A stretch of 34,536 bases of DNA from Chiloscyllium plagiosum. Taxonomy: Eukaryota. The first letter of the stretch is position 1, and every line of letters begins with the position of its first letter. The notes beneath the pieces were generated by a model. That model was not told where the DNA came from. It did no database searches and saw only the letters and a program-made list of their open reading frames with translations. The stretch covers positions 4,017,902-4,052,437 of the forward strand of contig NC_057719.1 in NCBI RefSeq assembly GCF_004010195.1, in the 5' to 3' direction. Positions 1-33,682 of the stretch are shown piece after piece. The translations under genes and the position numbers were made by a program.

Positions 1-103
1 AGTCGGGAGTGTGTTGCTTGGGCTTATGCCTGAAACGTTGATTCTTGTGATCCTCATGCTGCCTGACCTCTGTGCTTTTCCAGCAACACACTGTCAACTC
101 TGA
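1..103. mobile_element. Penelope-like terminal-repeat fragment (family A), foldback arrangement, runs off window start
   Basis: 1-18 (AGTCGGGAGTGTGTTGCT) matches 4211-4228 in the same orientation. 20-103 is the same repeat inverted (GGGCTTATGCCTGAAACGTTGATTC...CCAGCAACACACT). Hammerhead stem II and GAAAC are present; CUGANGA is lost at the junction. Confidence 0.75.
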
Positions 104-304
104 AGTCTCATCTGTTTTCATATTAAAGGGTATCGAGAGGCCTTTTTGTTTCTTTGTACCAAACCAGTCTGATCGGAAGTGGGAGCTGTTTATGACCCTC
201 TGAAAGAAACCAAAGGCACAGTATTCTTGAGAAAAGGAAAAGCTTTTAGAGAAAAGGGACCAACTTTGTGATATAGGAGAATGATTTTAAGTCTGCTCGC
301 TGGT

Positions 305-670
305 TTACTGCAGAATGTGCTGTTCTAGAAAATTGCCCTGAAAGCATTCTACCAACTCTTCATCTCGGCTCTCTTTGTCCGTCTGAACTTTACCAATGAA
401 TTGTGGATTAAAATCTCCCAAGATTATTGCCATGCCTTTCTGACAAAGTCTCAGTATTTCTTCCTTTATGCCTCTCCTTGCTGTGTGATTCCAAAGAAAT
501 GAATTTTTGCCTTTATTATTTATCATTTTTACCCAAACAGTTTTCACATCTTGGTTTCCTGAACTTAGGTCGTCCCTCTCTATTGGGCTAATCATTAACT
601 AACAACCTCTCCTTTTTTGGTTTCCTTTCATTCCTAAATGTCTTATCCTTCAAGTTACAGGTTCCATTCC
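305..670 (-). mobile_element. Decayed CR1 LINE ORF2 fragment, AP-endonuclease domain
   Basis: ORF 305-595 contains IILGDFN (APE motif) and EELVECFQGNFLEQHI, similar to FVQCVQEGFLTQYV of the CR1 at 15891-16151. Confidence 0.8.
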
Positions 671-1553
671 GTGTTATTCATGCATTCAGGAATATCAAAT
701 TTAAAACCGGCTCAACAATTTGTATAACCGGAGAAAAGGGAATGATCTGATTTCTGTGTAAAGTAAGTGACTTGTCTTCAAAATAATTCTTTAGTTGCAA
801 AGTACTGGCAGTATATTTTCTGTCTAAAGAAGTTCTGATCCAAAGGAAGTCGAAATGGAAACTATCAAGGGAGAGCGACATACAATCCATATTTAAAATT
901 CCATTCTCGGCGAGAAACCCATTTTTTTTTTTCTCACTACGGTTTGTAAATTGCTGACTCCAGATCGAAGGCCAAAAATAGTTTGAGTTCAAGGCTCTGA
1001 AATTGTGTTGTTAGAGAATAGCTTTCATAAACTCCTTCATGCTTAATAAATACAGGAGTTGGGATGAATTAAAGGAGAAACATAGTGTTTGGTTAATCAT
1101 TCCTCATCCACTGAGTCGAAAGTGCACCTCAAAGTATCTTTAAACTTGAAATGGCAACTGAAGTAGTATTCATTGACTACCTGTCAAACAAATGAACCCA
1201 TTGCTGCGTGGCGCCTCCAGAGAGGTGCTGTTTTGTGTGTGTCTGTGCAACAAGTGGTTGATTGAAAACAATACTCTTGAGTTTCTGCTTTCTAGTCATC
1301 TAGGTGATCCTAATTCAATGATGTAAGGCCCAAAGATGGCAGAAAAGAAAATAACAAAGATCCAACACTAATGTCAGTGTTAATTGGGCCCAGTTGTGCT
1401 GGACAGAAACATAATTGTTCAGTAATCTAATTAGTTATATGGTTTGACCTTATCATCCCATGGTGATGATTATTAGAAAGTTTGACAAGTGACCTGCAAT
1501 ATAAGCATAGCTTCATGTCTAAGCATGACCTGACCATTTACTTATCGACAATT

Positions 1554-1890
1554 GGGGAGACGATGGCCTAGTGGTATTATCACTGGACTGTTAATCCAGA
1601 GACCCAGGTCATGTTCTGGGGGCCTTGGTTCAAATCCTGCTATGGCAGATGGTGGAATTTGAATTCAATAAATATCTGGAATTAAGAATCTAATGACAAC
1701 AAATATCCATTGCCAGTTGTCAGAAAACACCCATCTGGTTCACTAATGTCTTTTAGGGAAAGGTGTCTGCTGTTCTTACCTGATCTACATGTGACTCCAG
1801 ACCTACAACAAAGTGGCTGACTTTCAACTACCCTCTGGGCAATCGGGAATAGGCAATAAATGCTGCCTAACCAGTGATGGCCCATTGTCC
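1554..1890 (+). mobile_element. tRNA-derived SINE (family 2) with LINE-derived tail
   Basis: A-box-like GATGGCCTAGTGG and B-box-like GGTTCAAATCC. Tail GGCAATAAATGCTGCCTAACCAGTGATG resembles the LINE 3' end at 8405-8600 (minus). Confidence 0.8.
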
Positions 1891-2382
1891 ACTTCAAACT
1901 AAATTCGGAGCAACATGGGAAAATGAAATGCTGCCTTTTTGATAAGGGTTTTGGGCTCAAATTCACCCAATAGCTTTCAGGACTTTTTCTATTCTTGGTG
2001 GTAGGTGGAGAAACCTTGCATTTGTTACTGGTCTTAAAGATCGAGGTACTTGACTGCCAAGTCAAAGTCCTGATGACTATACAGTGTAGCAGTATCCACA
2101 GTACTGTTAGATGAGGAATTCCAAATCTTGTTTGAACAATAATGTATTTCCCAGGTAGGAATGTGTTTCAGGAGAGCTTGCAGGTTGTAGTGTAATGCCT
2201 CACTGGCGTAGCACATTGGATATCAAGTCCAACTATTCTCAAAGTCAAAGTTACAATTCCCCAATTTACCTGCCATTTAAACCCAGGTAGACTGATAATT
2301 CTGACCGAGTTTCTGTTCCTAACAAGTAAATAGATTCAAATTTCACAGACAATTATGAACAATTGACACACAATTCTACTGG

Positions 2383-2519
2383 GTAAAAACAATGACTGCA
2401 GATGCTGGAAACCAGATTCTGGATTAGTGGTGCTGGAAGAGCACAGCAGTTCAGGCAGCATCCAAGCTCCTTGGATGCTGCCTGAACTGCTGTGCTCTTC
2501 CAGCACCACTAATCCAGAA
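2383..2519. mobile_element. Penelope-like foldback insertion: perfect 50-bp inverted repeat with 15-bp TSD
   Basis: Arms 2417-2466 and 2470-2519 are exact reverse complements (loop CTC). Flanked by ACACAATTCTACTGG (2368-2382) and ACACAGTTCTACTGG (2519-2533). Related to 4180-4276 and 33544-33670. Confidence 0.88.
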
Positions 2520-3544
2520 CACAGTTCTACTGGTTAAAACTCTAATCTACTGATAACCAACCCCGACACAGACAAAGCATGTGTTATTGGTAGAGAGAAA
2601 GACTGAGCAGGCTCATCGGTGGGTTATTCCTGAAAAGAGTGAGCGATTGGGTTGTCACATCCTGCAAGACTGAAAAATACCCCCCAACCCAAAAATCGCC
2701 AGACATGTCAGCAGAACAAATTAACCTTTTAAAGTCTCATTCCCACTTTTTATCATTCTATGATAATCAACTAAATGGGGTTGACAAAGTTGTTACCAGC
2801 TTAGTCACAAGAATCTGACAGCCAGTATTTAAGCAAGTTATTGACACGCAACATACGATGGTTATAACAACAAGAATTACTAGTCTATGTAGTACATATA
2901 ATCCCCAGAATCCTCCCACGTGGAAAAAGTGTTCACCAGTAAAGTTCTTAAATCCTCAGTCCTTAGTGACCACTCCATTTCCACCTCACCAAGTTGAGTG
3001 GAATCGAGCAAGTTATCCGAAATCTCTTTCCGTAAAGTCCAAGCTGAAAACAAAATCTAGTCTGGCAGGGGTCAGTTCTGTTGTGTACAGTGGATAGGGA
3101 GCCCAGGCCTCTGGGGATGCAGAGATTAGTGCTGTTCTTGCAAGCTTGAAGGGGTCCCATGCAATGAAGTGTGCTCACAAGGCAAGGTGCATATGTAGGG
3201 TTAGATGTAGCCATCTGTTTGCTTTTGGCCATCTTCCTGTTCAACTTAGCAAATTCCAACCGGAGATTCTGAGGATTTTTGGAGTCAAATCAAATGCCAT
3301 TTAAGGCTTTTTTTGCTTCTGCTATCAAATGTAACAAAACCAACTGGCTGTTTTGATGTTAGTTTGATCAGTGAACCTTCATATTCCTTAAATGATCGAA
3401 AGAGAAGGTAAAGCTCACGTGGTTTAATATCCATAGGAAGGCCACTGACAAAAACCGTACGGACCTCCTCTTCACCATTTGTGAATGGGGTGCTAATCTA
3501 CCGGGCTACTTTGTCTTCCACGATGTTTTGAGTATTTTTGGAGT

Positions 3545-4170
3545 CGCACTTGTCCAGCCAAGTGGGGAGTTTATTGTCAGATGTCTGATCGTTTTGGAGA
3601 TGGTGGACAGGCTTAGGAGGTGAGTTAACTGCTCTGGGTTCTTAGCCTTAGATATGTTCTTTTAGCTACCATATTTATATTGCTAGTTTAATTCAATTTT
3701 CCATCAATAGTAATCCCCAGGATTAGTGATTGTGATATAATGTCAGTGAATGTCTAAGGAGCAATGGTTAATTCTCATTTGTTGGGGATGGCCAGCTATG
3801 TTGTTTCATTGGAGATGGTCATCGCCCATCACTTGTCTGGTGCGAATGTCATTTACCACTTGCCAGCACAAATTTGGGTATTTTCTAGGTCTTGTTGCAT
3901 TTGGGCCCCTGATAATTGGGAGTAGGCTTATGGGGCTGTAACTGGCTAGGTTGAATTACCTGTGGATTTTGTACTGGATATTCCCAGGCCATTTTCCACA
4001 TTTTTGGAAAGATGCCAGTTGTTGTATCTGTACAGGAATAGCATGTTAGGATTACAACAAAATCTGGAGTACAGTCTTGAGTATTATTTCTGGAATGATG
4101 TCAAGGCACTTAATCTTGCAGTATTCATTGCCCTTGGTTGTTCCTTGCTATCACATGAAGTTAATGGCTA
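3545..4170 (-). mobile_element. Old decayed LINE ORF2 fragment (second LINE family, CR1/L2 group)
   Basis: Shares blocks with 11890-12070 (GACAGGC...AGGAGGTGAGTTA...TAGCYAC...ATATTTATAT...CCCCAGG). Confidence 0.6.
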
Positions 4171-4179
4171 AAGCTTGGT

Positions 4180-4276
4180 GAAAGTGAGAACTGCAGATGC
4201 TGGAGATCAGAGTCGAGAGTGTGTTGCTGGAAAAGCACAGAAGGTCAGGCAGCATCTGAGGTGCAGGAGAATTGAT
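4180..4276 (-). mobile_element. Penelope-like terminal-repeat fragment (family A), truncated before the ribozyme core
   Basis: GAAAGTGAGAACTGCAGATGCTGGAGATCAGAGTCGAGAGTGTGTTGCTGGAAAAGCAC... is near-identical to 33545-33640. Confidence 0.8.
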
Positions 4277-4320
4277 TTTTTTTTTGTTCCTTCCTGATTT
4301 GTACAACAACATCAATGATT

Positions 4321-4710
4321 AAGGGGAGATCTAATAGAAACTTACAAGATAATACATGGCTTGGAGAGGGTGGACGCTAGGAAATTGTTTCCGTTAGGCG
4401 AGGAGACTAGGACCCGTGAACACAGCCTTAGAATTAGAGTGGGTAAATTCAGAACAGAAATGCGGAGATATTTCTTCAGCCAGAGAGTGGTGGGCCTGTG
4501 GAATTCATTGCCGCAGAGTGCAGTGGAGGCTGGGACGCTAAATGTCTTCAAGGCAGAAATTGATAAATTCTTGATGTCACAAGGAATTAAGGGCTACGGG
4601 GAGAATGCGGGTAAGTGGAGTTGAAATGCCCATCAGCCATGATTGAAAGGCGGAGTGGACTCGATGGGCCGAATGGCCTTACTTCCGCTCCTATGTCTTA
4701 TGGTCTTATG
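4321..4710 (+). mobile_element. 5'-truncated CR1 LINE (ORF2 C-terminus and 3' UTR)
   Basis: ORF 4361-4624 ...FFSQRVVGLWNSLP...GIKGYGENAGKWS. Tail GATGGGCCGAATGGCCT...CCTATGTCTTATGGTCTTATG. Confidence 0.92.
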
Positions 4711-4894
4711 ACTGGAGATGGGATTTGGTATTAAAATATTATCGTGATGGCTGCAGATGTAAGGTGTGACTACTTGGATAACTGGCCAGGTTGACTTTGC
4801 TAGGTGAAATAAAATCAAGGTGGGATGGTTGTTCTTCAGAATACTTGGCAGGAGTAAATATTAAAAACAAGTTTTCTAATGTGCTGCACAAGAA

Positions 4895-5276
4895 TGGTGT
4901 GCAGTTCTGGACGACAGACTAGGAAAGATGTGGAGGCTTTGGAGAGGGTGCAAAAGAGGTTTACCAGGATGCTGCCTGGATTGGAGCATATTAATTATCA
5001 GGAGAAACTTGGATTGTTTGCATGGTGACCTGATTCATGAGGTTTAGACAATATGGATAGTCAGAGTCTTTCTCCAAGGTTGGAAATGCCACATACTAGG
5101 CAGTAAAGTGAGAGGGGTAATGTGAGTTTAAAGTAGATTTGCAAGGCAAGTTTTTTTTATGCAGAGGGTGGTAGGTGCCTAAATTTAGACTGCCAAGAAG
5201 GTGGTAGAAACAGATAGAGCAATGTTTAAGGTATTTAGGCAGACACATGAACAGGCAGTGAATAAAGGGATATAAA
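4895..5276 (+). mobile_element. Decayed CR1 ORF2 3' fragment
   Basis: TGTGCAGTTCTGG...GGAGAGGGTGCAAAAGAGGTTTACCAGGATGCTGCCTGGA (ERVQKRFTRMLPG); many indels. Confidence 0.85.
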
Positions 5277-5278
5277 TT

Positions 5279-5358
5279 AGAGTGGTGCTGGAAAAGTACA
5301 GCAGATCAGGCAGCATCTGAGGAGCAGAAAAATCGATGTTTCGGGCAAAAGCCCTTCA
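5279..5358 (-). mobile_element. Penelope-like terminal-repeat fragment (family A) with partial hammerhead
   Basis: Minus strand reads TGAAGGGCTTTTGCCCGAAACATCGATT; the 5' part of the core is missing. Confidence 0.75.
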
Positions 5359-7064
5359 AAATTAATAGCATTTTTCATTCCCACAGTTATGTTGTGCATA
5401 ATTGCTATTGTACAGTAACCGTGAAGAATGTATTTGTTGTGTGAAACAGTAGAATAAATGCAGCAAATCCTTTCCTCCTTCCTCAGTGTTTTTTCTTTTC
5501 CTCCCAACCCCAAAACTAACAAAACAGATTAACCGTTATTCTTCCAACTGAATTAGTTTAAATTTACAAATCAATGGTACTTCTTTTGAATCTCCAATTT
5601 AGTGTCTCCTCATGAAGTCAAAGTAGTTTTATTATTGATGCTGATCCGTTTGATTCTGGTGCTGTTACTAACAATACTGGGCCATTACTCTTCAATTTTT
5701 CTTCCTTCACCTTTTCCACTCCCTCTCACTTTCTTTCTTCCATTTAATATGGGATTAAGAATGCATTAAAAGCAACAGACAATAGTAAGTACAATGACAT
5801 TCAGAGGCCACCCATATTAACAAAGGAAGTGGTACACCAAAGGCTGTCACTTTTGAGGTAATTTCACAATAGAGTGTGGTTTGCAGACTGAAGTCACTTG
5901 TGCATTCTAATTCTTGACGTTTAGAATATATAATCCTGTTTGGATAGCTGGTAAATATTGCAAAGTAAATCTAAAGTTTTGATTTGGTTAAGCTGTGAAA
6001 TGAAATCCTGTCTAAGCAAAATTGAAACAACTTGTCTTTTGTCACAACGTTTTGTCTTCTCTAGACCAAATATGCAGGTGGCATTTTAAAGTATGAAACA
6101 GTGGCTCTTTTGATATAGCTAATGGCTATCTCTTAAGGTGCCATAAGGGAGTAGAGTGAATTATGCATTTCTTTCCTCCCTGAGGATCTTTTTGTCTAGC
6201 CAGTCTATCAGGGATGGAGAATGTAATGATTGCTGTGTTGACTTATTAATGTCATGGATGGATTTCATGCATTATTTTAGACTTCTGCTGTTTTGGGGTA
6301 AAATAGTTCCCATGAGCAAATTGTAAAATTTCTAAACATAAATGTAAGGAGTTTGTAGTAATTGCAGATCACTATGTACTTGGAAAATCTGTCATGGCTG
6401 GAACTAGGATGATAAATATCTCCACGTGTATATGCTGAAAGGATAACAAAAGTGGCAAATGTCCCAAGTGTGTTATTGTCAGCATTACATATGGAGATGA
6501 ACTTAATGTCATTACTGGTCAAGACAGATGTTATTTTTCCTGAGTGCTTTTTAAAATCAGAAGGACTGTGCCACTGCTATTTCCTTCTCACCACAACTCC
6601 TTTTCAATCTGTGACCCCTCTGTTCCATGCTTGTGCTGTGGAACCTTGTTTAAAAACTGCTCTGCTTGAATTTCCAAATTGCGTATCAGAAGGTGCATGT
6701 TGTTGGTAGGGAGATTATAGCTGAATTTATCCTATTAAGTGCGTACGCATACCAACATGTCCACTGGATAGCCATTGGTGTGGTTGACTTTCCTTTTGTG
6801 TTGTAGGCATTGTGCCCAACAGTGCTGTTCCAGACATTGCTCTGATGGAAAAGGCGAGTCTGGTCAACAAAATATCGAAGTATTAATGTTTATTCCTTAA
6901 AAACAGATTAATTTAGCCTCGACTGCTGGTCCTCGACCTCACTATATTGAAATGTGACTGACTTTTTAAAAAGATTTTAAGGCAATAATTTGTGTTTTTG
7001 GTTCACTGAGTAATGTGATTGACCACCACCCATTCCCGAGTGCAGAAAGTCTTCCTGTACTGTC

Positions 7065-7522
7065 GAGTTCTACAGCACAAAACAGACCCTTCATTCCCTT
7101 CGTCCGCGACGGCCATATGTGACCTAGTGCCATTTGCCAGCATTTGGCCTATATCCCTCTAAACACTTCCAATTCATATACCCATCCAGAATCCTTTTAA
7201 ATGTTGTAATTGTATCCACGTCCACCCCACACACTGGCAGCTTGTTCCATACAAGCTTTCTCTGCGTAAAAAAAGTTACCTCTCTGTTCCTTTTTAAATC
7301 TTTCCCCCTCACCTTAAACCTATGCTGTCTAGTTTTGGGCTCCCCCACCCTATGAAAAAGACCTTGGATCTTCACTTTATCCATGTCTCTCTCGATTTTG
7401 TAAACCTCTATAAGGTCACCCTTAGCATCTGATGTTCCAGGAGAAAAGAATGCCCCAGCCTATTCAGCCTCTCCCAATAACTCTAACCCTCGAGTCCCAG
7501 CAACACCCTTGTATATCTTTTC
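7065..7522 (-). mobile_element. 5'-truncated CR1 LINE
   Basis: ORF 7124-7384 ...FFTQRKLVWNKLP...CLEGYRPNAGKW; CR1 tail at ~7070-7100. Confidence 0.9.
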
Positions 7523-8139
7523 TTTTCATAACTATGTCCACAGGCTAGTACAATCTCTGTGCAGTGCGCTCTCAGTTATCTGAATATTATTAGTGAGAAA
7601 CAAAAGTGAAACCTAATTTTAATTCACTTTACATCCCTTTATACTTGCATTGTCTAGACATGTTGCATAGATTGACTTCTGCTTTTCAACAAAAATGCAT
7701 GCAATGTCTGAATTTAATCTTCAAACGTTGGTTAAAAAACTTTAAATCCTAATGCAAAAACACAATTTGACTAACTTAATAAACATTTTTTAAAAAGTGA
7801 CCTTGAAAATTATTTTGGCCATCTGTGACATGCACATTGCCGGTTTCTTACCAAGTTAAACAAAGAAGATCTTGTAACCAAAAGTCAAAGTGCACACTGT
7901 GTTCTGGTTCATGACCATCATTAGGATATCAACAAAGTACTCTTCAGATGTGGAAAAAGTTTCACAGACTTTTGTTCTTAATCTGAAGAATGGTTTAAAC
8001 CAAAGAAAGCGAGGATGTAAACAAATGACAACAGGAACAAGAGAAGTTTTTATATTTTGTGGGGATAATTGGTGTTTCTGGCAAGACCTGTACTTGTTGC
8101 CCACAAACTGTGTGGATTGCCAGGCTAGTTAAGCGTCAA

Positions 8140-8395
8140 CTACATTTCTGTGGATCTGGAATTATGTAGGCCAGACTAAGTGAGGATGGCAAATTCCTTT
8201 CCTTAAAGGGATCTGATGGGTTTTTAAGATGATGATGGTTTCATGGCTACCTTGCCTGAGATGAGCTTTTAATTTTGGATTTATTAGTGATTTTTGATCC
8301 CATCATCTGCCATAATGGGATTTGAATCTGCCTCCCCAAAGCATTAACCTGGGCCTTTGCATTACTACTCTGCGTTAACATTATGCCGTGGCCCA
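8140..8395 (-). mobile_element. Decayed SINE family 2 copy
   Basis: Reverse complement aligns by eye to 1554-1810 (GATTCAAATCCCATTATGGCAGATG...; TCTGGCCTACAT). Confidence 0.7.
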
Positions 8396-8404
8396 TTGCA
8401 CATT

Positions 8405-8600
8405 TTTTTTTATACTCATCTTGTGGGATGTGGGCATCACTGGCTGGCCAGCATTTATTGCTCATCTCAAGTACCCTTGAGAATGTGGTGGTGAGCTGCT
8501 TTCTTGAACTGCTGTAGTGCACCTGCTGTGGGTTGAACCACAAAGCCGTTAGGGAGGAAATGCCTGGATTTTGACCCAGCGACAGTGATTGAAGCATATC
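8405..8600 (-). mobile_element. 3' end of second LINE family with A-rich tail
   Basis: Minus strand GGGTCAAAATCCAGGC...AAGCAGCTCACCACCACATTCTCAAGGG...CAATAAATGCTGGCC...TATAAAAAAAA; homologous to 8892-9040 and 18423-18640. Confidence 0.8.
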
Positions 8601-8726
8601 AATTGTACTGACTTTGGTGAATATTCCTCTTGGTGTAGAAGTGCCCATATATTTTCTTGAATAAAGTCAGTGATAAAAGGATAGTGGTTATAAAATCTTT
8701 GTATTGCAGATCCTTTAACCAAATAA

Positions 8727-8878
8727 CAGAACACAGAACAGTACAACACAGTACAGGCCCTTCGGCCCTTGATGTTGTGCCAACCTTTTATCCTACTCTA
8801 AGATCAGACTAGCCTCCATACCCTGCATTATACTATCATCCATGTGTCTATCCAAGAGTCGTTTAAATGTCCCTAATC
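8727..8878 (-). mobile_element. CR1 3' tail fragment
   Basis: CAGAACACAGAACAGTACAACACAGTACAGGCCCTTCGGCCCTTGATGTTGTGCC is the same tail type as 33683-33740. Confidence 0.85.
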
Positions 8879-8891
8879 CCCTCCAAGCCCC

Positions 8892-9040
8892 TCACCATCC
8901 TGACTTGGAAATATATCCCATTCCTTCACTGTTACTGGGTCAGAACCCTGGAATTCCCTCCCTACCAGCATTGTGGGTCAACCCACAGCAAGTGGACTAC
9001 AGCAATTCAACAAGGCAGCTCACCCCACATTCTCAAGGGA
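8892..9040 (+). mobile_element. 3' fragment of second LINE family
   Basis: CACCATCCTGACTTGGAAATATA...AAGGCAGCTCACC is shared with 18423-18570. Confidence 0.8.
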
Positions 9041-9534
9041 CAATAATCAGCAATCGAAAGTGTGCAGATATATTTTGTCGTATGGTTCAACAAAAAGACT
9101 GGAAGTGGTGGCACAAGTAGCAGTTTACCAGGGCTCAAAATTAAACGTAAAACAAGCATTACTTTGGCACGCTTGATAATGTTCTTCGCTTTTAGTAAGA
9201 GGTTTTACTGTACATTGAATATCTTGGTCAGTTATTAAGTTTGTATGCTTATCACATAAGAAACATTATGCAAATTTTGATTCTGATGGCAAGTCCGTGT
9301 TTTGTCATCTCCACTAAGATTTTATTTGTGAAATGCTGCTTCATTGATGGGGATGCCATTACCAATGGTTTCCTTGCCCATTTGTACCCTTAAAAGATCA
9401 AAGAAAATCACTGTAAATGTGATGAGCATGACAATTCCATTGCAGAATATCTTTTTGCTAACAATCTATGCATATTTCTAAAAGCTGTGCAGATATAAAA
9501 TTTGCCATGTTTCAACAATTAAAATTGTACTTTG

Positions 9535-9985
9535 AATAAGACGTAGGAGCAGAAGTAGACAATTCAACCCTTTGAGCCTGCTTCACCATTCAATATGATC
9601 ATGGCTGATATCATCTCAGCCTCAACTCCACTTTCCTACCTACTCTCTATAAACCCTTCAATGCATTGCTAATTAAAAATCTAACACCTCATCAAATTTA
9701 TTCAGTGTGTGAGCATCCACTGAAATCTGGGATAGTGAATTCAACAGATTCAAAATTTTTTGAGAAATAATTTCACCTTATCTCTGTTTTAAATCTGCTA
9801 TTTATCCTACAACAATGACCTCTTATTCTAGATTGTCCCACGAGAGGATATATCTACTTTGTCGATCACCTTTTAGCATTTTATGTTCCTCAATTAAATC
9901 TCCTCTCATTTTCTTAGAACTCTAGAGAGTATAGGCCCAAACTGTCCAATCTTTCTTCAGAAGACAAATCCCTTATCTCTGAATC
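9535..9985 (-). mobile_element. Decayed 5'-truncated CR1
   Basis: Tail ATAAGACGTAGGAGCAGAAGTAGACAATTCAACCC...CCATTCAATATGATCATGGCTGAT is the reverse complement of the 4630-4710 tail type. Confidence 0.8.
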
Positions 9986-9989
9986 AGAC

Positions 9990-10292
9990 AACACAAAAGA
10001 AGCCCTTTTAGCCCAACAAATTTGTACTGCCAAAAATATACTACCACCTACACTCATCCCACTTTCCAGCACTTGTCATAACACTCAAGGCTATGGGCCA
10101 TTTCAAGAGGTGATCCAAATACATTTTAAATGTTGGGGTTTCCTGCCTGAACTACAAGCTCGATCAGTGGCTTCCAGACCCCTGCCACCCTCGGGGTTAA
10201 AGTTTTCCTCACATCTTGTCTCAACCTTCTGCATTTTGCTTTGTTTTTGACCCTCAACTAAGGGAAATAGCTCCTTTCTATCCACTCTAGCC
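9990..10292 (-). mobile_element. Decayed CR1 3' fragment
   Basis: ORF 10103-10294 begins MARVDRKELFPLVEG. Confidence 0.7.
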
Positions 10293-10639
10293 ATAAGATA
10301 TTGGCGTAGAATTAGGCCATTCAGCCATCATGAGATTGCGGTGTTTCAAACTTGGATGCCCAGAAATTCTGATCAGCAAAGTTGTCAGTAGTTCTCACTG
10401 GTAGAACGTTGAATCAAATAGAATGATATCCACGATGAGTGGAAGCTCTGGACTGGTGAGTCCTAATTAGCAGAATTGCTTTCATATCGCTCGAAAAACC
10501 ACTCAGAAGTGAGCCATACTAGAGCCAAATAGAGTTCTGGGCAAGTCATTATTTAACATCAGGATCTCTGTGAAAGGCTGGTCACATGATGCAATTACAG
10601 CTAAACCTGAAAGAAAATTGAAAAGTTTTTGTATCCATT

Positions 10640-10810
10640 CTTGAGATGTGAGCTTTAGCTGGGCCAGTATGGTGTCTGTACACCAACAATGTGTTAACGG
10701 AGACCCAACAATACTAAAGAGACAGCAGTATATTTCCAAGTCAGGCTATTGAGTGACTTGGAAATGAACATGCAAGTTATGGTGATCCTCATTCTATGTA
10801 TCTGCTCTTC
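10640..10810 (-). mobile_element. Decayed 3' fragment of second LINE family
   Basis: TATATTTCCAAGTCAGG at 10729-10745 is the reverse complement of CCTGACTTGGAAATATA. Confidence 0.55.
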
Positions 10811-10814
10811 CTAC

Positions 10815-11718
10815 TTATAGGGTCATAAAGATGTACAGCACAGAAACAGACCCTTCGGTCCAACCCATCCATGTCGACCAGATATCTCAACCCAATCTAG
10901 TTCCACCTGCCATCACCTGGCCCATATCCCTCTAAACCCTTCCCATTCATATAACCATCCAAATGCCTTTTAAATATTGCAATTGTACTAGCCTCCATCA
11001 CTTCCTCTGGCAGCTCATTCCATACAATCATCACCCTCTGAGTGAAAACGTTGCCCCTTAGGTCTCTTTTATATCTTTCCCCTCTCTCCCTAAACCTATG
11101 TCCTCAAGTTCTGGACTCCCCCAGGGGAAAGACTTTTTGTCTATTTATCCTATCCATACCCCCCATGATTTTGTAAGTCTCTATAATGTCACCCCTCAGC
11201 CTCCGACGCTCCTGGGAAAACAGCCCCAGCCTGTTCAGCCTCTCCCTATAGCTCAGATCTTCCAACCGTGGCAACATCCTTGTAAATTTTTTCTGAACCC
11301 TTTCAAGTTTCACAACATCTTTCCGACAGGAAGGAAAACAGAATTGCACGCAATATTCCAACGGTGATCTAACCAAAGTCCCGTACAGTCGCAACATGAC
11401 CTCCTAACTCCTGTACTCAATACTCTGACCAATAAAGGAAAGCATACCAAACACTGCCTTCACTACCATATCTTCCTGTGACTCCACTTTCAAGGAACTA
11501 TGAACCTGCACTCCAAGGTCTCTTTGTTCAGCAACACTCCCCAGAACCTTACCATTAAGTGTATAAGTCCTGCTAAGATTTGCTTTCCCAAAATGCCACA
11601 CCTTGCATTTATCTGAATTAAACTCCATCTGCCACTTCTCAGCCTATTGGCCCATCTGGTCAAGATCCTGTTGTAATCTGAGGTAACCTCCTTCACTGTC
11701 CAGTACACCTCCAATTTT
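10815..11718 (-). mobile_element. 5'-truncated CR1 (HER1-like) LINE
   Basis: ORFs MEFNSDKCKVWHFGK... and LEYCVQF...ERVQKKFTRMLP...RGDIIETYKIM; same subfamily as 25375-26466. Confidence 0.95.
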
Positions 11719-11724
11719 CTCATG

Positions 11725-12070
11725 GAGGTGGGTTTGGAAGCTGCTGACTCAGCAAAATTGGCAGTTTCTGCGCTGCATCTTCTAGATGGTACTTGCTGCT
11801 GTGCTTTGGTGAAGGAAGTGACTGTGGATGTGGTACCAATCAAGTGGGCTGGATAGTGTCATAGTTATTGAGTGCTGTTGGGAGCTGCACGCATCCAGGC
11901 AAGGGGACAGTGTACCATCACACGTCTGACTTCTCTCTTGTAGATTGTAGACAGGCATTGGGGAATCAGGAGGTGAGTTATTCACTGCAGGATTCCCAGC
12001 CTCTGACCTGCTCTTGTAGCCACAGTATATATGGCTCATGCTGGTCAGCGGTAAGCCCCAGGGTGATGTA
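11725..12070 (-). mobile_element. Internal RT-region fragment of second LINE family
   Basis: Similar to 3545-3730; decayed, frameshifted ORFs. Confidence 0.65.
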
Positions 12071-12791
12071 AATCTGATGGTGATCGAGCACTTGGGAAAC
12101 TAATTGGTACGAATTGAAAAGTGGACATCACTAAGGAGTAGGAAATTCCACCGTTGAGTTGGTCAACCTGCATCCATTTTGAAGCTTATGTCAAACATCT
12201 TGGAACGGTTCCAGAAGCAGGCATCCTTTTCAGCAAGGGAATCATTGTTGAAAAGATTGGCTGCCTTTTCTGATGCTGAAGAAGCACTGCTAACATTCCC
12301 ATCTCTGGGGAAGGACCTGGGTCACATGTTCAGCCGCTGATGGATAACTGACCACATTCAAGATAAGGCTCGACATTGTCTTCCGAATGGTAAGCATTGA
12401 GAGTACTGCGTTTACAGCAGTACTGTATAGTAGCCTTTCTTATGTCCTGCTATTTTGCTGTCTTTTACCAGAATGCTGTTTTATGTTTAAATGTGAAATA
12501 TTGGAGAGCAGAGCAAGGAACGTGTCACTACTATAATGATGGCATGACAATACTGCTGCTACTTATTACAGGAAGGTCTGAGAACACACATTGCTTTGTG
12601 AATGTCAAGACAATACTCCTGTAATTTGTGGTTAATGAAATTGCATAGATATCCTCCATGCTTTTAAGGCACGAATCAGGAAAGTGGACAAAATGTATGG
12701 ACAGAAGAGAAGGAAGATTATCATCGTTACAGACTGCAGCCCCGTGGACCCTGTCATTACTAGCCTTAAATGTCAAGGTGACCTTGCCTCT

Positions 12792-13502
12792 TGTTATGAA
12801 GGTGTAGGTGTGTACTGTACCTTTTGAGAGAGAGAGGAAGCTGTCAAGGACTTGGAGAAGCACAGTGTACTGAAAGATTTAAAAATGTAACATTTAGTTG
12901 ATACAAATAGCTGGTGCTGTGTTGCCATGAAACAAAAACAAATTCAAATTCAGCTGATCAGTTTAAATTATGCCCCAGATACCAAAATCCAATCGAATTT
13001 GAGTTTTACTGTTGGAGATGACATCAAACCAATGAAATGATGTAATGTTTTGGGGTGTAAAACCGGACATTTTGAACAGTTGGGAGAGCAGCACTGAGCG
13101 CCAACAAACAGACAGCTAGCAGAGTCACTCTCTGAAAGGTATCTGTCTATAAGAAATTTGTGCAGCAGAACATCACAGTCGACGTAGAGGAATCTAGAGA
13201 GAAAATTCGACATCCAAAGACCATACCTAGGTTTGAAATTGATTTTGTTGTAAATTTAAGAGGGAATTTATTGGACCAGTATTGTAGAATGGCAGGTAAA
13301 AGATCGGTTTGTGAGAAAGGAGTTGTATATAACTGTTGTTTCAATGTTCTCTCTTGAATTTAAGGAATAAAATCGCTAATTTTTACTTTAAATAGTGACC
13401 TGAGATAGTTCTTTGCCTCTCAAATTTTAACAGATTGCAGCATGAGGTGAGCTTCTCTGTGTGTCAGGTTTAAATTAAGAGGGTTCACACCGTGTCGTAA
13501 CG
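12792..13502 (+). mobile_element. Solo LTR (~711 bp)
   Basis: Termini TGTTATGA...TCGTAACG (imperfect inverted), 4-bp flanks CTCT/CTCA, AATAAA at 13366-13371, no internal coding sequence. Confidence 0.7.
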
Positions 13503-13588
13503 CTCAACGCCATGACCAAGTTCCAGTTAACGGATTAGTTGGGTAACTAGAACCTGGAAACTCCGCCAGTGGCATCTGATTTGTCAGG

Positions 13589-13799
13589 TTATCCAGGCCA
13601 TCAATAAGGAGCAGGAGTATGATCTAACTATTCTAGAGACCATGTTCATGAAGGTGGCGTGGAAAAATGTAATGCGGAAAGTCAGGAGGCATGGGATAGA
13701 GGGAAATTTGGCCATTATCCAGGCCATCAATAAGGAGCAGGAGTATGATCTAACTATTCTAGAGACCATGTTCATGAAGGTGGCGTGGAAAAATGTAAT
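13589..13799 (+). repeat. Perfect 85-bp direct repeat flanking a 41-nt CR1 RT snippet
   Basis: 13589-13673 is identical to 13715-13799. Spacer 13674-13714 encodes RKVRRHGIEGNLA (compare KKMQIHGIEGNLA at ~16998-17036). Confidence 0.92.
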
Positions 13800-14067
13800 A
13801 GCAAAGTCACAATTGTTGACTGTCTTGCCCCGTGGGGTTCAAATCCTCTACAGTTATGCAAGAGGCTGAGAATGAAGAGGAGCAGGGTGAAGGTAGCCAA
13901 CCTTATGAATAAGCTCTTCTCCTCATGTGTGTGTGGCCGTCATGGAAGATTTATACTGAGGTGAAAAATACTATACACTGAACAACAGAAGACTGAGATG
14001 AGGAAATTCTTCTGAGGATTAAGTGTCTTTGGACCCCTTGCCACTGAGAGCTGTGGGAGCAGAGTCC

Positions 14068-14236
14068 TTGTGTACATTTTAAGGTTACAATAGATAGGGG
14101 AATTTTGTCTTCATTGCTAAAGGGATTGAGTTTAAAAGCAGCGAGGTTATTTTGTAGCTGTACAGGACGCAAGTGATGCCACACCTGTAGTACCATGTGC
14201 AGTTTTGGTCTCCTTGCTTGAGAAAGGATGTACTGG
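14068..14236 (+). mobile_element. Decayed CR1 ORF2 internal fragment
   Basis: GGGATTGAGTTTAAAAGCAGCGAGG (GIEFKSSE)...GTGCAGTTTTGGTCTCCTTGCTTGAGAAAGGATGTA (VQFWSPCLRKDV). Confidence 0.85.
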
Positions 14237-14329
14237 TGAGAATGTGTATAGGCTTCAAAGTTTGTGAGAAGATTTGTAGCTCGGGTGCTTGTTGTTGTGG
14301 TTCTGTTCGCCGAGCTGGGAATTTGTGTT

Positions 14330-14369
14330 GCAGACGTTTCGTCCCCTGTCTAGGTGACATCCTCCGTGC
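14330..14369 (-). ncRNA. Minimal hammerhead ribozyme motif, core mutated (CGGAGGA)
   Basis: Identical to 15344-15383 except at position 14365, which changes CUGAGGA to CGGAGGA. Confidence 0.7.
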
Positions 14370-14824
14370 TTGGGAGCCTCCTGTGAAGCGCTTCTGTGTT
14401 GTTTCCTCCGGCATTTATAGTGGTTTGTCTCTGACGCTTCCGGTTGACAGTTTCAGCTGTCCGTTGTAGTGGCCGGTATATTGGGTCCAGGTTGATGTGT
14501 TTGTTGATAGAATCTGTGGATGAGAGCCATGTCTCTAGGAATTCCCTGGCTGTTCTCTGGCTTGTCCTATAATAGTGGTGTTGTCCCAGCCAAACTCATG
14601 TTGCTTGTCATGTGTGTGTGGCTACTAAGGATAGCTGGTCGTGTCGTTTCGTGGCTAGTTGGCGTTCATGGATGCGGGTCATTAGCTGTCTTGCTGTTTG
14701 TCCTATGTAGTGTTTTGTGCAGTCCTTGTGCAGTTGAACACCTACTAGCCACGAAACGCCACAACCAGCTATTCTTAGTAGCCACACACGCAAATGACAG
14801 GCAACATGAGTTCGACTGGGACAA

Positions 14825-15135
14825 CACGGTGGCACAATGGTTAGCACTGCTGCCTCTCAGCGCCAGAGACCTGGGTTCAATTCCCGCCTCAGGCGACTGA
14901 CTGTGTAGAGTTTGCACATTCTCCCCGTGTCTGCGTGGGTTTTCCCTGAGTGCTCCGGTTTCCTCCCACAGTCCAAAAATGTGCAGGTTAGGTGAATTGG
15001 CCATGCTAAAATGCCTATAGTGTGAGGTGAAGGGGTAAATGTAGGGGAATGGGTCTGGGTGGGTTACGCTTCGGCGGGTCGGTGTGGACTTGATGGGCTG
15101 AAGGGCCTGTTTCCACACTGTAAGTGATCTAATCT
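14825..15135 (+). mobile_element. HE1-like tRNA-derived V-SINE inserted in the Penelope arm
   Basis: A box GGTGGCACAATGG, B box GGGTTCAATTCCC, CR1-type tail GGGCTGAAGGGCCTGTTTCCACACTG...ATCTAATCT. Penelope sequence GACAACAC|TATT resumes on both sides. Confidence 0.92.
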
Positions 15136-15343
15136 ATTCTAGGACAAGCCAAACAGAGAACAGCCAGGGAATTCCTAGAGGCATGGCACTCATCCACAGA
15201 TTCAATCAATAAGCACATTGATCTGGAACCAATATACCGGCCACTGCTGCGGACAGCTGGAACTGACAACCGGAAGCGGCAGAGACAAACCACTATAAAT
15301 GCCGGAGGAAACAACACAGAAGTGCTTCACAGGAGGCTCGCAA

Positions 15344-15383
15344 GCACTGAGGATGTCACCTAGACAGGGGACGAAACGTCTGC
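15344..15383 (+). ncRNA. Minimal type-I hammerhead ribozyme motif, intact core
   Basis: GCA-CUGAGGA-U-GUCACC-UAGACA-GGGGAC-GAAAC-GUC-UGC: stem I GCA/UGC, stem II, palindromic ACGU in place of stem III. Predicted cleavage after C15380. Confidence 0.85.
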
Positions 15384-15837
15384 AACACAAATTCCCAGCT
15401 CTGCGAACAGAGCCACAACAATGTGTATAGGGTATAAGCAGGTAGGGAAAGAGTTAAGTTCTGTGTTTTGTGAAACAAGAGGTTCAGCTGGGCATGGCTC
15501 TTATTAGATAAGAACTTGCAGTTAGCAATAGGGTGCTGGAGGTGAAAAAGCATTCATTATATACAGCCATTTAACAATATTGGAAGCATTCAGTATGCAA
15601 GGTCAGCCAACAAGGGGAAAAGTATCCATTTGTAATAATCCAGTTAACAAGGTTAAGAAGATTCATTGTCTAACAGTAAAGGGCTTGGTCTCTGCTATTG
15701 ATATTCGTTGATTGTAATGTCACCCAATTAATATATATGTTGCCTTATCTGGATGCTCCTCCCTGTAAAATGGCTATATAGTTCATTGAGAAACTGCTGA
15801 TCCAGAGAAGACCTCATGTCCCTGTGTACATGGGTGA

Positions 15838-18144: not shown

Positions 18145-18281
18145 GTTGCTGTGGTTCTGTTCGCTGAGCTGGGAATTTGTGTTGCAGACGTTTCGTCCCC
18201 TGTCTAGGTGACATCCTCAGTGCTTGGGAGCCTCCTGTGAAGCGCTTCTGTGATCTTTCCTCCGGCATTTGTAGTGGTTTG
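18145..18281 (-). mobile_element. Penelope-like terminal-repeat fragment (family B)
   Basis: Near-identical to 14291-14427. Confidence 0.9.
18184..18223 (-). ncRNA. Minimal type-I hammerhead ribozyme motif, intact core
   Basis: Exact reverse complement of 15344-15383. Confidence 0.85.
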
Positions 18282-18422
18282 AACAATAAAGGAATTAAGG
18301 GATATAGTGAAAGCACAAGTAAGTGGATCTGAGTCTACGAAAAGATCAGCCATTGGATGGCGGAGGAAGCTCGAAGGGCCAGATGGCTGCCTCCTGCTGC
18401 TAGGCCTTATGTTCTAAGTCAC

Positions 18423-18640
18423 TCACCATCCTGACTTGGAAATATACCAATGTTCCTTCACAGGCATTGGGTCAAATTCTGGAATTCCTTCTCTACCGCC
18501 ATTGTGGGTCAACCCACAGTAGGTGGACTGCAGCGATTCAAAAAGGCAGCTCACCATCACCTTCTCAAGGACAAACAGGTGTGGGCTATCGATGATGGTC
18601 AGACAGCGATGCCCAAGTGTCACGAATACATTTTTAAAAA
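18423..18640 (+). mobile_element. 3' end of second LINE family
   Basis: ORF fragment WVKFWNSF...GLQRFKKAAHHHLLK; homologous to 8892-9040. Confidence 0.8.
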
Positions 18641-18649
18641 CCCATTTTC

Positions 18650-21600
18650 TTATGCTATTCCATATTCCTTGATGTCCATGCTGTGTATAAAACAATCAAT
18701 CTTTGTCTTGAACCTACTCAATGTCTGAACTCCTGCTCTCTGGGGTAGAGAATACCAAAGATTCACTACCTTGTGTATGAAGAAATTCTTCTCAGTCCTA
18801 AGTAGCTTACTTCTTCTTCTAAGACTCTTTCCTGGTCTTGGAGTCTCTGCCAAGAGGAAAATCTTTTCCCATTTCCCTGACTAGGCCTTTAAGACGTTTT
18901 TTAAATTCTCAATGAGATCATTTCTCACTCTTCTAAACTGTAGAGAATACAGATCTTGTATGCTCAGTCACTCCTCCAGGACCGTCCTGTGGTATCAGAA
19001 ATTGGTTTGGAGAATCTTGGCTTTAACCTCCTCTGTGGCGGGGACTAAAACTGCACACAACATTGCAGGTGCAGTTTCATCCAGGCTCTACACAACTGAT
19101 AGAAATTGTCTTTATTCCTGTACTCACATCATTTACAATCCTTCACCTTTCTAATTGCTTGCTGCACCTGCATGTTAGCTTCCTGTGACTTGTGTAGAAG
19201 GACATTCGGGTCCCTTTTGGATGTCAGCTTTTCTCAATCTCTTTTTCGCGCTCTCTCTCGCGCTCTCTCTCGCGCTCTCTCTCGCGCTCTCTCTCGCGCT
19301 CTCTCTCTCGCGCTCTCTCTCTCGCGCTCTCTCTCTCGCGCTCTCTCTCTCTCGCTCTCCGTCTCGCGCTCTCGCGCTCTCTCCGTCTCGCGCTCTCGCG
19401 CTCTCTCCGTCTCGCGCTCTCGCGCTCTCTCCGTCTCGCGCTCTCGCGCTCTCTCCGTCTCGCGCTCTCGCGCTCTCTCCGTCTCGCGCTCTCGCGCTCT
19501 CTCCGTCTCGCGCTCTCGCGCTCTCTCCGTCTCGCGCTCTCGCGCTCTCTCCGTCTCGCGCTCTCGCGCTCTCTCCGTCTCGCGCTCTCGCGCTCTCTCC
19601 GTCTCGCGCTCTCGCGCTCTCTCCGTCTCGCGCTCTCGCGCTCTCTCCGTCTCGCGCTCTCGCGCTCTCTCCGTCTCGCGCTCTCGCGCTCTCTCCGTCT
19701 CGCGCTCTCGCGCTCTCTCCGTCTCGCGCTCTCGCGCTCTCTCCGTCTCGCGCTCTCGCGCTCTCTCCGTCTCGCGCTCTCGCGCTCTCTCCGTCTCGCG
19801 CTCTCGCGCTCTCTCCGTCTCGCGCTCTCGCGCTCTCTCCGTCTCGCGCTCTCGCGCTCTCTCCGTCTCGCGCTCTCGCGCTCTCTCCGTCTCGCGCTCT
19901 CGCGCTCTCTCCGTCTCGCGCTCTCGCGCTCTCTCCGTCTCGCGCTCTCGCGCTCTCTCCGTCTCGCGCTCTCGCGCTCTCTCCGTCTCGCGCTCTCGCG
20001 CTCTCTCCGTCTCGCGCTCTCGCGCTCTCTCCGTCTCGCGCTCTCGCGCTCTCTCCGTCTCGCGCTCTCGCGCTCTCTCCGTCTCGCGCTCTCGCGCTCT
20101 CTCCGTCTCGCGCTCTCGCGCTCTCTCCGTCTCGCGCTCTCGCGCTCTCTCCGTCTCGCGCTCTCGCGCTCTCTCCGTCTCGCGCTCTCGCGCTCTCTCC
20201 GTCTCGCGCTCTCGCGCTCTCTCCGTCTCGCGCTCTCGCGCTCTCTCCGTCTCGCGCTCTCGCGCTCTCTCCGTCTCGCGCTCTCGCGCTCTCTCCGTCT
20301 CGCGCTCTCGCGCTCTCTCCGTCTCGCGCTCTCGCGCTCTCTCCGTCTCGCGCTCTCGCGCTCTCTCCGTCTCGCGCTCTCGCGCTCTCTCCGTCTCGCG
20401 CTCTCGCGCTCTCTCCGTCTCGCGCTCTCGCGCTCTCTCCGTCTCGCGCTCTCGCGCTCTCTCCGTCTCGCGCTCTCGCGCTCTCTCCGTCTCGCGCTCT
20501 CGCGCTCTCTCCGTCTCGCGCTCTCGCGCTCTCTCCGTCTCGCGCTCTCGCGCTCTCTCCGTCTCGCGCTCTCGCGCTCTCTCCGTCTCGCGCTCTCGCG
20601 CTCTCTCCGTCTCGCGCTCTCGCGCTCTCTCCGTCTCGCGCTCTCGCGCTCTCTCCGTCTCGCGCTCTCGCGCTCTCTCCGTCTCGCGCTCTCGCGCTCT
20701 CTCCGTCTCGCGCTCTCGCGCTCTCTCCGTCTCGCGCTCTCGCGCTCTCTCCGTCTCGCGCTCTCGCGCTCTCTCCGTCTCGCGCTCTCGCGCTCTCTCC
20801 GTCTCGCGCTCTCGCGCTCTCTCCGTCTCGCGCTCTCGCGCTCTCTCCGTCTCGCGCTCTCGCGCTCTCTCCGTCTCGCGCTCTCGCGCTCTCTCCGTCT
20901 CGCGCTCTCGCGCTCTCTCCGTCTCGCGCTCTCGCGCTCTCTCCGTCTCGCGCTCTCGCGCTCTCTCCGTCTCGCGCTCTCGCGCTCTCTCCGTCTCGCG
21001 CTCTCGCGCTCTCTCCGTCTCGCGCTCTCGCGCTCTCTCCGTCTCGCGCTCTCGCGCTCTCTCCGTCTCGCGCTCTCGCGCTCTCTCCGTCTCGCGCTCT
21101 CGCGCTCTCTCCGTCTCGCGCTCTCGCGCTCTCTCCGTCTCGCGCTCTCGCGCTCTCTCCGTCTCGCGCTCTCGCGCTCTCTCCGTCTCGCGCTCTCGCG
21201 CTCTCTCCGTCTCGCGCTCTCGCGCTCTCTCCGTCTCGCGCTCTCGCGCTCTCTCCGTCTCGCGCTCTCGCGCTCTCTCCGTCTCGCGCTCTCGCGCTCT
21301 CTCCGTCTCGCGCTCTCGCGCTCTCTCCGTCTCGCGCTCTCGCGCTCTCTCCGTCTCGCGCTCTCGCGCTCTCTCCGTCTCGCGCTCTCGCGCTCTCTCC
21401 GTCTCGCGCTCTCGCGCTCTCTCCGTCTCGCGCTCTCGCGCTCTCTCCGTCTCGCGCTCTCGCGCTCTCTCCGTCTCGCGCTCTCGCGCTCTCTCCGTCT
21501 CGCGCTCTCGCGCTCTCTCCGTCTCGCGCTCTCGCGCTCTCTCCGTCTCGCGCTCTCGCGCTCTCTCCGTCTCGCGCTCTCGCGCTCTCTCCGTCTCGCG

Positions 21601-31530: not shown

Positions 31531-31940
31531 ATTTTGGGTATGTTTTTGCTGTAAATGGTGCATAAATAAGAAAATTAAATTATTCTGCAGTAAATTTGAA
31601 GATTACAAATGGAAATGCATATTACAATGCAAAAATACCCATAAACTGAAACTTCCCGGATAGTCTTGTGCTAATATGTAACATGGTGTCAGTGGAATGT
31701 TTCTGGCAATGAGCAAAGAATCTGTTTCTCAATGGTTGGATTTAGCAGATTTGGTGACATAATATTGATGTTAGTCCAGCTGCGTGAGATCTAAGTTTCA
31801 GAAACAAATGAGAGTGCAAGCACTGTTAAGTCTTGTATCAAAGGATTGTCAATTCCAGCTCCTGTGGGACCAGATCCATAATGCAAAATTGTCTCTGGGT
31901 TCACACTAGAATGAGTTGGTCACAAGGTGGTCCATTATAT

Positions 31941-32042: not shown

Positions 32043-32057
32043 TCAACTGACGAGGTC

Positions 32058-33530: not shown

Positions 33531-33543
33531 GTGTAGAGTTAGG

Positions 33544-33670: not shown

Positions 33671-33682
33671 ATAGAGTTAATA

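Follow-up and report, generated by a model that had tools for sequence, protein, structure and literature searches.

One-tailed fold-back insertions of Penelope-like elements in a Chiloscyllium plagiosum genomic window

The window analysed here, a 34,536-nt stretch of the Chiloscyllium plagiosum genome (contig NC_057719.1, positions 4,017,902 to 4,052,437), contains pieces of two families of Penelope-like elements (PLEs), referred to as A, a probable member of the class, and B. Some of these pieces form fold-back insertions, in which two PLE stubs stand head to head and one arm carries an extra tail of 30–40 bases; this pattern is real. The family A fold-back consists of the following features.

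2368–2382: left TSD copy, 15 bp, one mismatch to 2519–2533
2383–2416, minus strand: tail of family A, 34 nt, with no counterpart in the right arm; alignable with the ends of the copies at 4180 and 33545
2417–2466, minus strand: body of the left arm, 5'-truncated before the hammerhead; 50/50 bases identical to 2470–2519 of the right arm
2467–2519, plus strand: right arm, tail-less, extending 3–4 nt beyond the left arm on the 5' side
2519–2533: right TSD copy, pairing with 2368–2382

The additional 5' bases make the right arm the source of the 3-nt loop between the arms. Allowing two mismatches lengthens the TSD to 21 bp; the tail's first 6 nt are thus target-like, and the tail measures 28–34 nt. 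Both arms end before the ribozyme, and an Rfam search of the palindrome (2413–2523) returned no hammerhead, only sub-threshold matches to microRNA hairpins.

The family B fold-back is larger and is listed below with a separate copy of the same family.

14241–14252: left TSD copy, 12 bp, exact match to 15420–15431
14254–14292, minus strand: family B tail, 39 nt, between two family-wide termini marked by loose ends and a depth step
14293–14728, minus strand: left arm, comprising the pLTR with its hammerhead motif and a stop-interrupted coding part for the C-terminal GIY-YIG
14729–14734: junction insert, 6 nt, repeating neighbouring left-arm bases
14735–14827, plus strand: inner part of the right arm, 82/91 bases identical to 14578–14668 of the left arm
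14825–15133, plus strand: SINE-like repeat inside the right arm, with BLAST matches to 33047–33334 and other copies; no TSD seen
15134–15419, plus strand: outer part of the right arm, tail-less, 263/284 bases identical to the left arm
15347–15380, plus strand: minimal hammerhead-like motif within the pLTR of the right arm, from a motif scan, without an Rfam hammerhead hit
15420–15431: right TSD copy, pairing with 14241–14252
18145–18281, minus strand: tail-less family B copy, ending at the equivalent of 14291, without TSD

The repeat that interrupts the right arm is presumably a tRNA-SINE. The outer right arm has 2 nt in common with the TSD (15420–15421), and reads of family B leave the window sequence behind 14728 (4084 and 3852 reads). 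An assembly fold-back artefact was ruled out by the differing flanks, the direct TSDs and the 7–10% divergence of the family B arms. Two further candidates were rejected: the 18145 copy as a clean single insertion lacking a tail, since about 215 nt of host repeat are absent beside it and it has no TSD, and the inverted pair 8474–8588 / 8926–9039 as a fourth fold-back, because it has no TSD, other repeats between its arms and no hammerhead motif.

A third inverted pair lies at the window edge, and three single copies of family A were found elsewhere in the window.

1–18, minus strand: left-arm remnant, outer end beyond the window; 15/18 bases identical to the right arm
20–103, plus strand: right arm, tail-less, starting in hammerhead stem II and ending at the equivalent of 4207
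4180–4275, minus strand: single copy with tail, from a related subfamily; a TSD was sought and none found
5279–5357, minus strand: single tail-less copy, with a 3' end lying about 6–11 nt internal to the remaining short ends; a 6-bp AT-rich TSD is possible but weak
33542–33671, minus strand: single copy with tail and an intact minimal hammerhead motif at 33666 (minus strand); possible 8-bp TSD (33534–33541 / 33672–33679)

BLAST matched 20–103 to 33658–33572 and 41–103 to 4272–4207, upholding an earlier estimate that this right arm stops 27 nt short of the terminus of the 4180 copy. Base 1 of the window corresponds to 4211 of that copy, a position 4 nt internal to its short-end equivalent at 4207; the left tail and the TSD are thus out of view. 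Among the copies, family A tails measured 27–34 nt and the short ends varied by 5–11 aligned positions. Family A is known from six pieces, each shorter than 135 nt, which between them display a minimal hammerhead motif, a tail, an inverted arrangement and a TSD. Motif scans of sequence collections for this family gave 10 loci with matches of only 19–34 nt, which we treated as chance.

The initial annotation had described three insertions with inverted arms, the second arm always short. Its anatomy was confirmed in part: it stood at 2383–2519 and 14254–15419, and at 1–103 the left end falls outside the window. The shortfall of 34 nt at 2383 was retained, as were TSD lengths of 15 bp (one mismatch) and 12 bp (exact). 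The shortfall of 40 nt given for 14253 became 39 nt, since reads place the long end of family B at 14254 and the short end at about 14293. The description of the left arm as the longer one reflects only the strand of the window.

Family B could be assigned to the endonuclease-bearing (EN+) PLEs through its homologues, in line with the PLE identity that the annotation had proposed. The window holds the endonuclease end only; reverse transcriptase and, at the C-terminal end, a GIY-YIG domain in one ORF were found in related proteins. A 74-aa piece gave 80 hits in a protein search, among them P0015 (62% identity over 40 aa), with RVT_1 at 12–89 and GIY-YIG at 248–283, both above cut-off. Scanning 11 of the hits detected GIY-YIG in five, RVT_1 in two, no family in three and unrelated families in two. 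A 39-aa piece matched P0001 at 34/39 positions and gave an Atlas lead for GIY-YIG of 0.92; Pfam assigned no family to the two window pieces alone. The terminal repeat carries a minimal type I hammerhead motif at 15347 (plus strand) and 18220 (minus strand), with one core change in the left-arm copy. Rfam returned no hammerhead in family B, and the motif, called by scan, is a putative ribozyme. By eye, the pLTR resembles that of Poseidon of Anolis carolinensis (PAc), a Penelope/Poseidon element; the window itself is without RT. Family B also shows 5' truncation, tandem and inverted arrangement and a 12-bp TSD. Motif scans for family B gave no hits in viral contigs and none in metagenomes.

We mapped the 3' termini of family B by comparing sequence sets (reads in X19 and X20, contigs in X10, and X7) with the left arm as reference. 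Two termini were found, at 14254 and at about 14293, with the tail present on approximately 57% of ends, in keeping with the optional 30–40 bp 3' tail of PLEs. Loose ends before 14254 were seen in 2864 of 47,000 reads in X19, 2932 of 45,752 reads in X20 and 242 contigs in X10, and those before 14293 in 1340 reads in X20. Among the six loose-end positions listed per set, with 2391 more beyond those lists, 14293 did not appear in X19, X7 or X10, nor 14254 in X7. The flanks beyond the loose ends were unrelated and AT-rich (agreement 0.35), and the comparison revealed no empty site. Read depth climbed in a single step, the last tail bin standing at 0.567 and 0.579 of body depth. A two-site model with hand-chosen weights and overlap parameter (minimum overlap 35) gave 0.576, 0.935 and 0.986 against observed values of 0.574, 0.933 and 0.991, for which a uniform-end model gave 0.637, 0.782 and 0.908; the two-site fit was too high in the first tail bin (0.475 versus 0.435 observed). 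Two termini together with a one-step rise in depth mean that the family B offset is peaked, as the annotation had predicted.

One contig also had the short end at a tandem joint that runs head to tail from 14403 to 14293; the offset therefore belongs to the element and not to the second arm. Put forward earlier as a possibly undescribed rule for second arms, it is the known optional 30–40 bp PLE tail. The short end of family B sits in a 25-nt AC-rich loop on a predicted 7-bp stem (z −2.37, 77-nt piece). A longer 122-nt family B fold and all four predicted family A folds were no better than shuffles (z between −1.27 and +1.27).

Both arms of one insertion could be linked at two loci in the window, and the one-sided tail was present at both testable loci (2383–2519 and 14254–15419), not at three. 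If arms chose their ends independently with a tail share of 0.57, one long and one short arm would occur at 2/2 loci with a probability of about 0.24, or about 0.10 if the tail-less right arm of 1–103 is added. The rule that one arm always lacks the tail rests on n = 2 and is not established.

That the two arms are insertions of different age, the later one landing at the 5' end of the earlier, might be suspected from the 21/284 differences between the family B arms and from the great abundance of that family. However, a single direct TSD surrounds both arms at 2/2 testable loci, the junction showed no TSD, the 2383 arms agree at all of 50 nt, and the same arrangement with a TSD was reported in rotifer PLEs (PMC3846280); we regard this explanation as highly improbable. 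Equally improbable is a ready-made, MITE-like palindromic master of fixed asymmetry copied as a unit. The short TSD-flanked hairpin at 2383 resembles such a unit, but the two family A loci have different junctions and the arms carry PLE coding sequence, with depth falling towards the 5' side (a 5'-truncation gradient). The family B junction in the window also differs from two opposite-strand joints found in a related organism, C (14336/14512 and 14348/14501, among the joints listed). No joint is shared among the 15 listed of 134, all from X10 contigs, which include opposite-strand and go-back joints, and none from raw reads; the few joints seen suggest dispersed junction positions. Asymmetric ends and junctions differing between loci set these insertions apart from MITEs and TIR DNA transposons.

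We therefore favour, with a probability of roughly 0.6, one insertion per locus by an EN-bearing PLE, with both nicks priming on element RNA. The GIY-YIG endonuclease would nick both strands of AT-rich DNA about 12–15 nt apart, and both 3'-OH ends would prime reverse transcription on PLE RNA. That RNA would offer two fixed internal start sites 30–40 nt apart, the long one 3' of a stem and the short one within that stem's AC-rich loop, and the tail would be the sequence between them. End-joining repair would then link the two cDNAs, 5'-truncated at different points, in head-to-head orientation, and the direct TSD would arise by fill-in. We infer the two-nick origin of the inverted arms and the joining step; the template may have been two RNAs or a single one that was re-read through strand displacement. 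Priming from both nicks, already suggested in the annotation along with a staggered cut, is supported by the direct TSD and by the anole PLE protein, which in vitro cuts both strands and extends them (PMC11167929). The same study places the anole tail between two internal RT start sites, one in an AC-rich stem-loop, and has a predicted dimer. The earlier interpretation was thus borne out in part. A second RNA, one of the two options it named, is not required, as overlapping arms can arise in L1 twin priming from a single RNA, through internal duplication (10.1101/2024.08.27.596794).

Its other element, a hammerhead-mediated RNA dimer that supplies two templates and sets the second-arm offset, has in its favour the minimal hammerhead motifs of both families, proposed to act as dimers (PMC4209133). 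Yet the family B ends lie 40 and 79 nt downstream of the ribozyme cut, the 2383 arms lack the ribozyme, and Naiads without canonical hammerheads have inverted copies and tails (PMC8557442). For the anole PLE, moreover, hammerhead cleavage is not needed and ribozyme mutants insert normally in vitro (PMC11167929). We consider this link extremely improbable.

A stronger rival is snap-back, in which one cDNA (or an antisense template) copies itself and EN resolves the product at the edge of the tail, so that one side keeps it. Snap-back was proposed from junction palindromes (PMC3846280) and EN-mediated resolution in PMC8557442. It gives one tail per insertion without extra assumptions, the 50-bp perfect hairpin with a 3-nt loop at 2383 is what it would produce, and at 14254 the tail-less arm is nested within the tailed arm. 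The arm reaching further 5', however, is the tailed one by 60 nt at 14254 and the tail-less one by 3–4 nt at 2383, the latter impossible by copy-back from the tailed arm unless the centre was trimmed later. At 1–103 the tail-less arm exceeds the other arm by about 65 nt on the 5' side, though the tail region of that other arm lies outside the window. The presence of the short end at the tandem joint, and RT beginning directly at the short site in vitro (PMC11167929), also speak against it. Snap-back appears unlikely, though it deserves a hearing beside priming from both nicks.

Within the favoured reading, the start sites might be obligately paired: a PLE protein dimer would hold one RNA at both sites, one subunit priming at the long site from one nick and its partner at the short site from the opposite nick. 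The tail share of 0.57 and the 2/2 loci fit such pairing but do not show it. We advance it tentatively, as a possible but doubtful refinement.

A one-tailed fold-back is a signature already described for PLEs, whose insertions have an inverted pLTR and an optional 30–40 bp tail, and is ordinary for the class (Arkhipova et al. 2013, PMC3846280; Craig et al. 2021, PMC8557442). Our insertions share with these complex EN+ insertions the head-to-head, 5'-truncated inverted copies, one tailed inverted end, a junction that is palindromic and a hammerhead motif in the pLTR. They differ in a slightly longer TSD around the whole unit (12–15 bp versus 8–10 bp in rotifer PLEs), in that both arms are stubs without a full ORF, and in a measured share of tailed ends (about 0.57, for one family). 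With PAc (Frangieh et al. 2024, PMC11167929) they share two tail-bounding termini, an AC-rich stem-loop and AT-rich targets. The family B ends, 40 and 79 nt from the hammerhead cut, compare with a stated PAc site at 82–89 nt and an AC-rich motif at 46–53 nt, taken by eye as the other start site. The accessible text of that paper has no inverted double insertions or start-site pairing, and our families are known from sequence alone. Accessible parts of PMC9977147 and 10.64898/2026.07.22.740005 held nothing further on the PLE tail. The short-stem-II core motif of metazoan PLE hammerheads (Cervera and De la Pena 2014, PMC4209133) occurs in the terminal repeats of both families; here it was recognised by sequence only and marks neither terminus.

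The fold-backs work like twin priming yet are not L1. In L1 twin priming with internal duplication, both nicks likewise prime on element RNA, arms can overlap and cDNAs are joined by microcomplementarity (10.1101/2024.08.27.596794). L1 uses poly(A) and a spurious internal site, with partial overlap, whereas here there is no poly(A) end, the start sites are fixed 30–40 nt apart and arm overlap is near-complete.

The formation of inverted and tandem PLE ends has been named an open question (PMC8557442), and family B copies could serve as a test set for it. Family B depth was about 14,700 in 1,934 million letters, from which, assuming a genome of 3–5 Gb, its ends probably number in the tens of thousands. 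Pair types (long+long, long+short, short+short) together with 5' reach could separate paired twin priming, independent priming and snap-back. If pairing is true, nearly every fold-back would have exactly one tail, and a single programmed twin-priming reaction would account for the inverted pLTR, the tail and the TSD together.

The anatomy of the loci was derived from self-comparison of the window combined with base-level alignments. Fold-backs, in which two copies (arms) of the 3' region of a Penelope-like element (PLE) lie inverted and overlapping, involve two families, A and B. Their long ends carry an extra 3' terminal sequence of 30–40 nt (tail), and short ends are without it.

1–103: family A; left arm of 18 nt within the window, ending 4 nt inside the short terminus
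2383–2519: family A fold-back; arms 2417–2466 and 2470–2519, 50/50 bases identical, with a 3-nt loop between; 2383–2416 unpaired, with no counterpart in the other arm
14254–15419: family B fold-back, ends at 14254 (long) and about 14293 (short); left arm 475 nt, right arm about 380 nt and split by a SINE-like repeat; arm identity 263/284 and 82/91 bases
18145–18281: tail-less family B copy inside a LINE-like repeat

The 2383–2519 unit is enclosed by a TSD of 15 bp with one mismatch. As this TSD can be lengthened to 21 bp (two mismatches), the tail measures 28–34 nt. The target just past the right TSD (2534–2540) is similar to the initial tail bases (2383–2389), a likeness that suggests target–terminus microhomology at the long start. 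The 14254–15419 unit is enclosed by an exact 12-bp TSD. At 1–103 the left arm stops inside the short terminus, placing tail and TSD beyond judgement, and the locus was left out of the count. Thus, of three one-tailed fold-backs claimed by the initial annotation, two stand, each complete with arms, tail and TSD.

The SINE-like repeat (14825–15133) has the same orientation as the right arm, of which about 3 nt are missing, and no TSD was found around it within that arm; it either inserted afterwards or arose by template switching in the same event. On the 5' side of the copy at 18145–18281, about 215 nt of host sequence are missing, reflecting target deletion or subsequent loss of a second arm.

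Family B codes for the end of a GIY-YIG endonuclease. Its 74-aa piece has 80 relatives, one of which (P0015) carries RVT_1 followed by GIY-YIG. Among 11 relatives scanned for families, GIY-YIG was found in five, RVT_1 in two, unrelated families in two and none in three; a Pfam search of the window's own family B pieces gave no match. A motif scan detected a minimal hammerhead-like motif in both families, of a kind described for PLE terminal repeats (PMC4209133); Rfam did not detect it in either. The window holds no coding sequence of family A, whose probable PLE status rests on motif and anatomy.

Other repeats were also recorded. At 31940–32077, a hairpin whose arms are each some 50 bp long (87% match; no TSD found) precedes, on the + strand, a degenerate hammerhead-like motif (32047–32077); the whole may be the stub of a third PLE-like family. 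The region 8400–9050 was rejected as a PLE fold-back: it holds two opposed copies of another repeat (85% match over 115 nt; third copy at 18413–18615) with other repeats between and no TSD. A near-perfect 4.4-kb tandem array of an 18-nt unit (19232–23612), with several reading frames open, is a satellite or an assembly expansion. Local direct duplications lie at 13589–13809 (96 bp, 97%) and 26091–26394 (154 bp, 99%).

The termini of family B were assessed by aligning four public runs to its left arm (14133–14732): raw reads X19 and X20, sharing the species label of the best-matching run, and contig sets X7 and X10 from two other organisms. Loose ends with unrelated AT-rich flanks piled up before 14254 (X19: 2864 of 47,000 aligned reads; X20: 2932 of 45,752; X10: 242 contigs), and a second pile-up of 1340 reads preceded 14293 in X20. 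Among the loose ends listed, 14254 appeared in X19, X20 and X10 and not in X7, and 14293 in X20 and not in X19, X7 or X10. Depth in the last tail bin was 0.567 and 0.579 of body depth and rose by about 5,300 within the following 20 nt. A two-site model with hand-set parameters gave 0.576, 0.935 and 0.986 against the observed 0.574, 0.933 and 0.991, but was too high in the first bin (0.475 versus 0.435); the one uniform-end model tried failed to fit the profile. The expectation of peaked, non-uniform ends was thus borne out in family B, the family tested.

These reads give single termini and do not join the two arms of one insertion. In X10, one head-to-tail joint (14403 back to 14293) contains the short end and a second (14318 to 14254) the long end; both termini are therefore properties of the element that also occur outside second arms, and the proposed second-arm offset rule is not supported. 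The family B short end is predicted to sit in a 25-nt AC-rich loop on a 7-bp stem (z −2.37, 77 nt); a longer family B fold and four family A folds were no better than shuffles. At 4180–4260 and 33544–33672, family A has a predicted stem, at energies no better than shuffles, in which part of the tail pairs with the body and the short end is enclosed, resembling that predicted for family B.

We favour, at a probability of roughly 0.6, a reading in which both nicks of a staggered cut, 12–15 nt apart, would prime at two fixed RNA start sites, and the two truncated cDNAs would then be joined head-to-head. Varied junctions fit priming from both nicks: at 2383 the tail-less arm is 3–4 nt longer at its 5' side, and at 14254 the tailed arm is 60 nt longer, with a 6-nt insert identical to neighbouring bases. 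Family B reads depart from the window sequence behind 14728, and two opposite-strand joints in X10 lie at positions other than the window junctions. Snap-back with endonuclease resolution would account neatly for the single tail and is compatible with the 14254 locus, but the 2383 locus would require later trimming; we regard it as a less likely alternative. Two separate insertions, or a palindromic master element copied as a unit, are hard to square with the single TSD and with junctions that vary, and we regard each as very improbable. For an anole PLE (PMC11167929), both strands are cut and extended, reverse transcription starts at two internal sites with the tail between them, a dimer is predicted, and insertion is normal in hammerhead mutants. 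The suggested link between offset and hammerhead dimer is contradicted by those mutants and by position, the family B ends lying at distances of 40 and 79 nt to the ribozyme cut; we give it scarcely any credence. For L1, overlapping arms are described as possible from twin priming on one RNA (10.1101/2024.08.27.596794).

If each arm chose its end independently at a tail share of 0.57, one fold-back in two would combine a long and a short end, and two out of two would do so with a chance of about 0.24. That the tail is always single is accordingly not established. Obligate pairing of long and short starts within one insertion may occur, though it is less likely than not. None of the titles and abstract openings listed (20 of 121 in one search) pointed to a count of how two PLE ends pair. 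Published work describes, for PLEs, an inverted pLTR (the PLE terminal repeat) that completes an insert flanked by TSDs, a tail of 31 bp optional on one of two inverted pLTRs, and junction palindromes in a mostly head-to-head arrangement (PMC3846280); an inverted 5'-truncated copy adjoining the element and a 30–40 bp tail, often at one end only, also in Naiads, which are without canonical hammerheads (PMC8557442); and inverted pLTRs with short 3' extensions as PLE traits in a curation guide (PMC8969392). The fold-back with one tail is this known PLE signature of inverted copy plus tail; the feature is real, and its peaked offset holds for family B.
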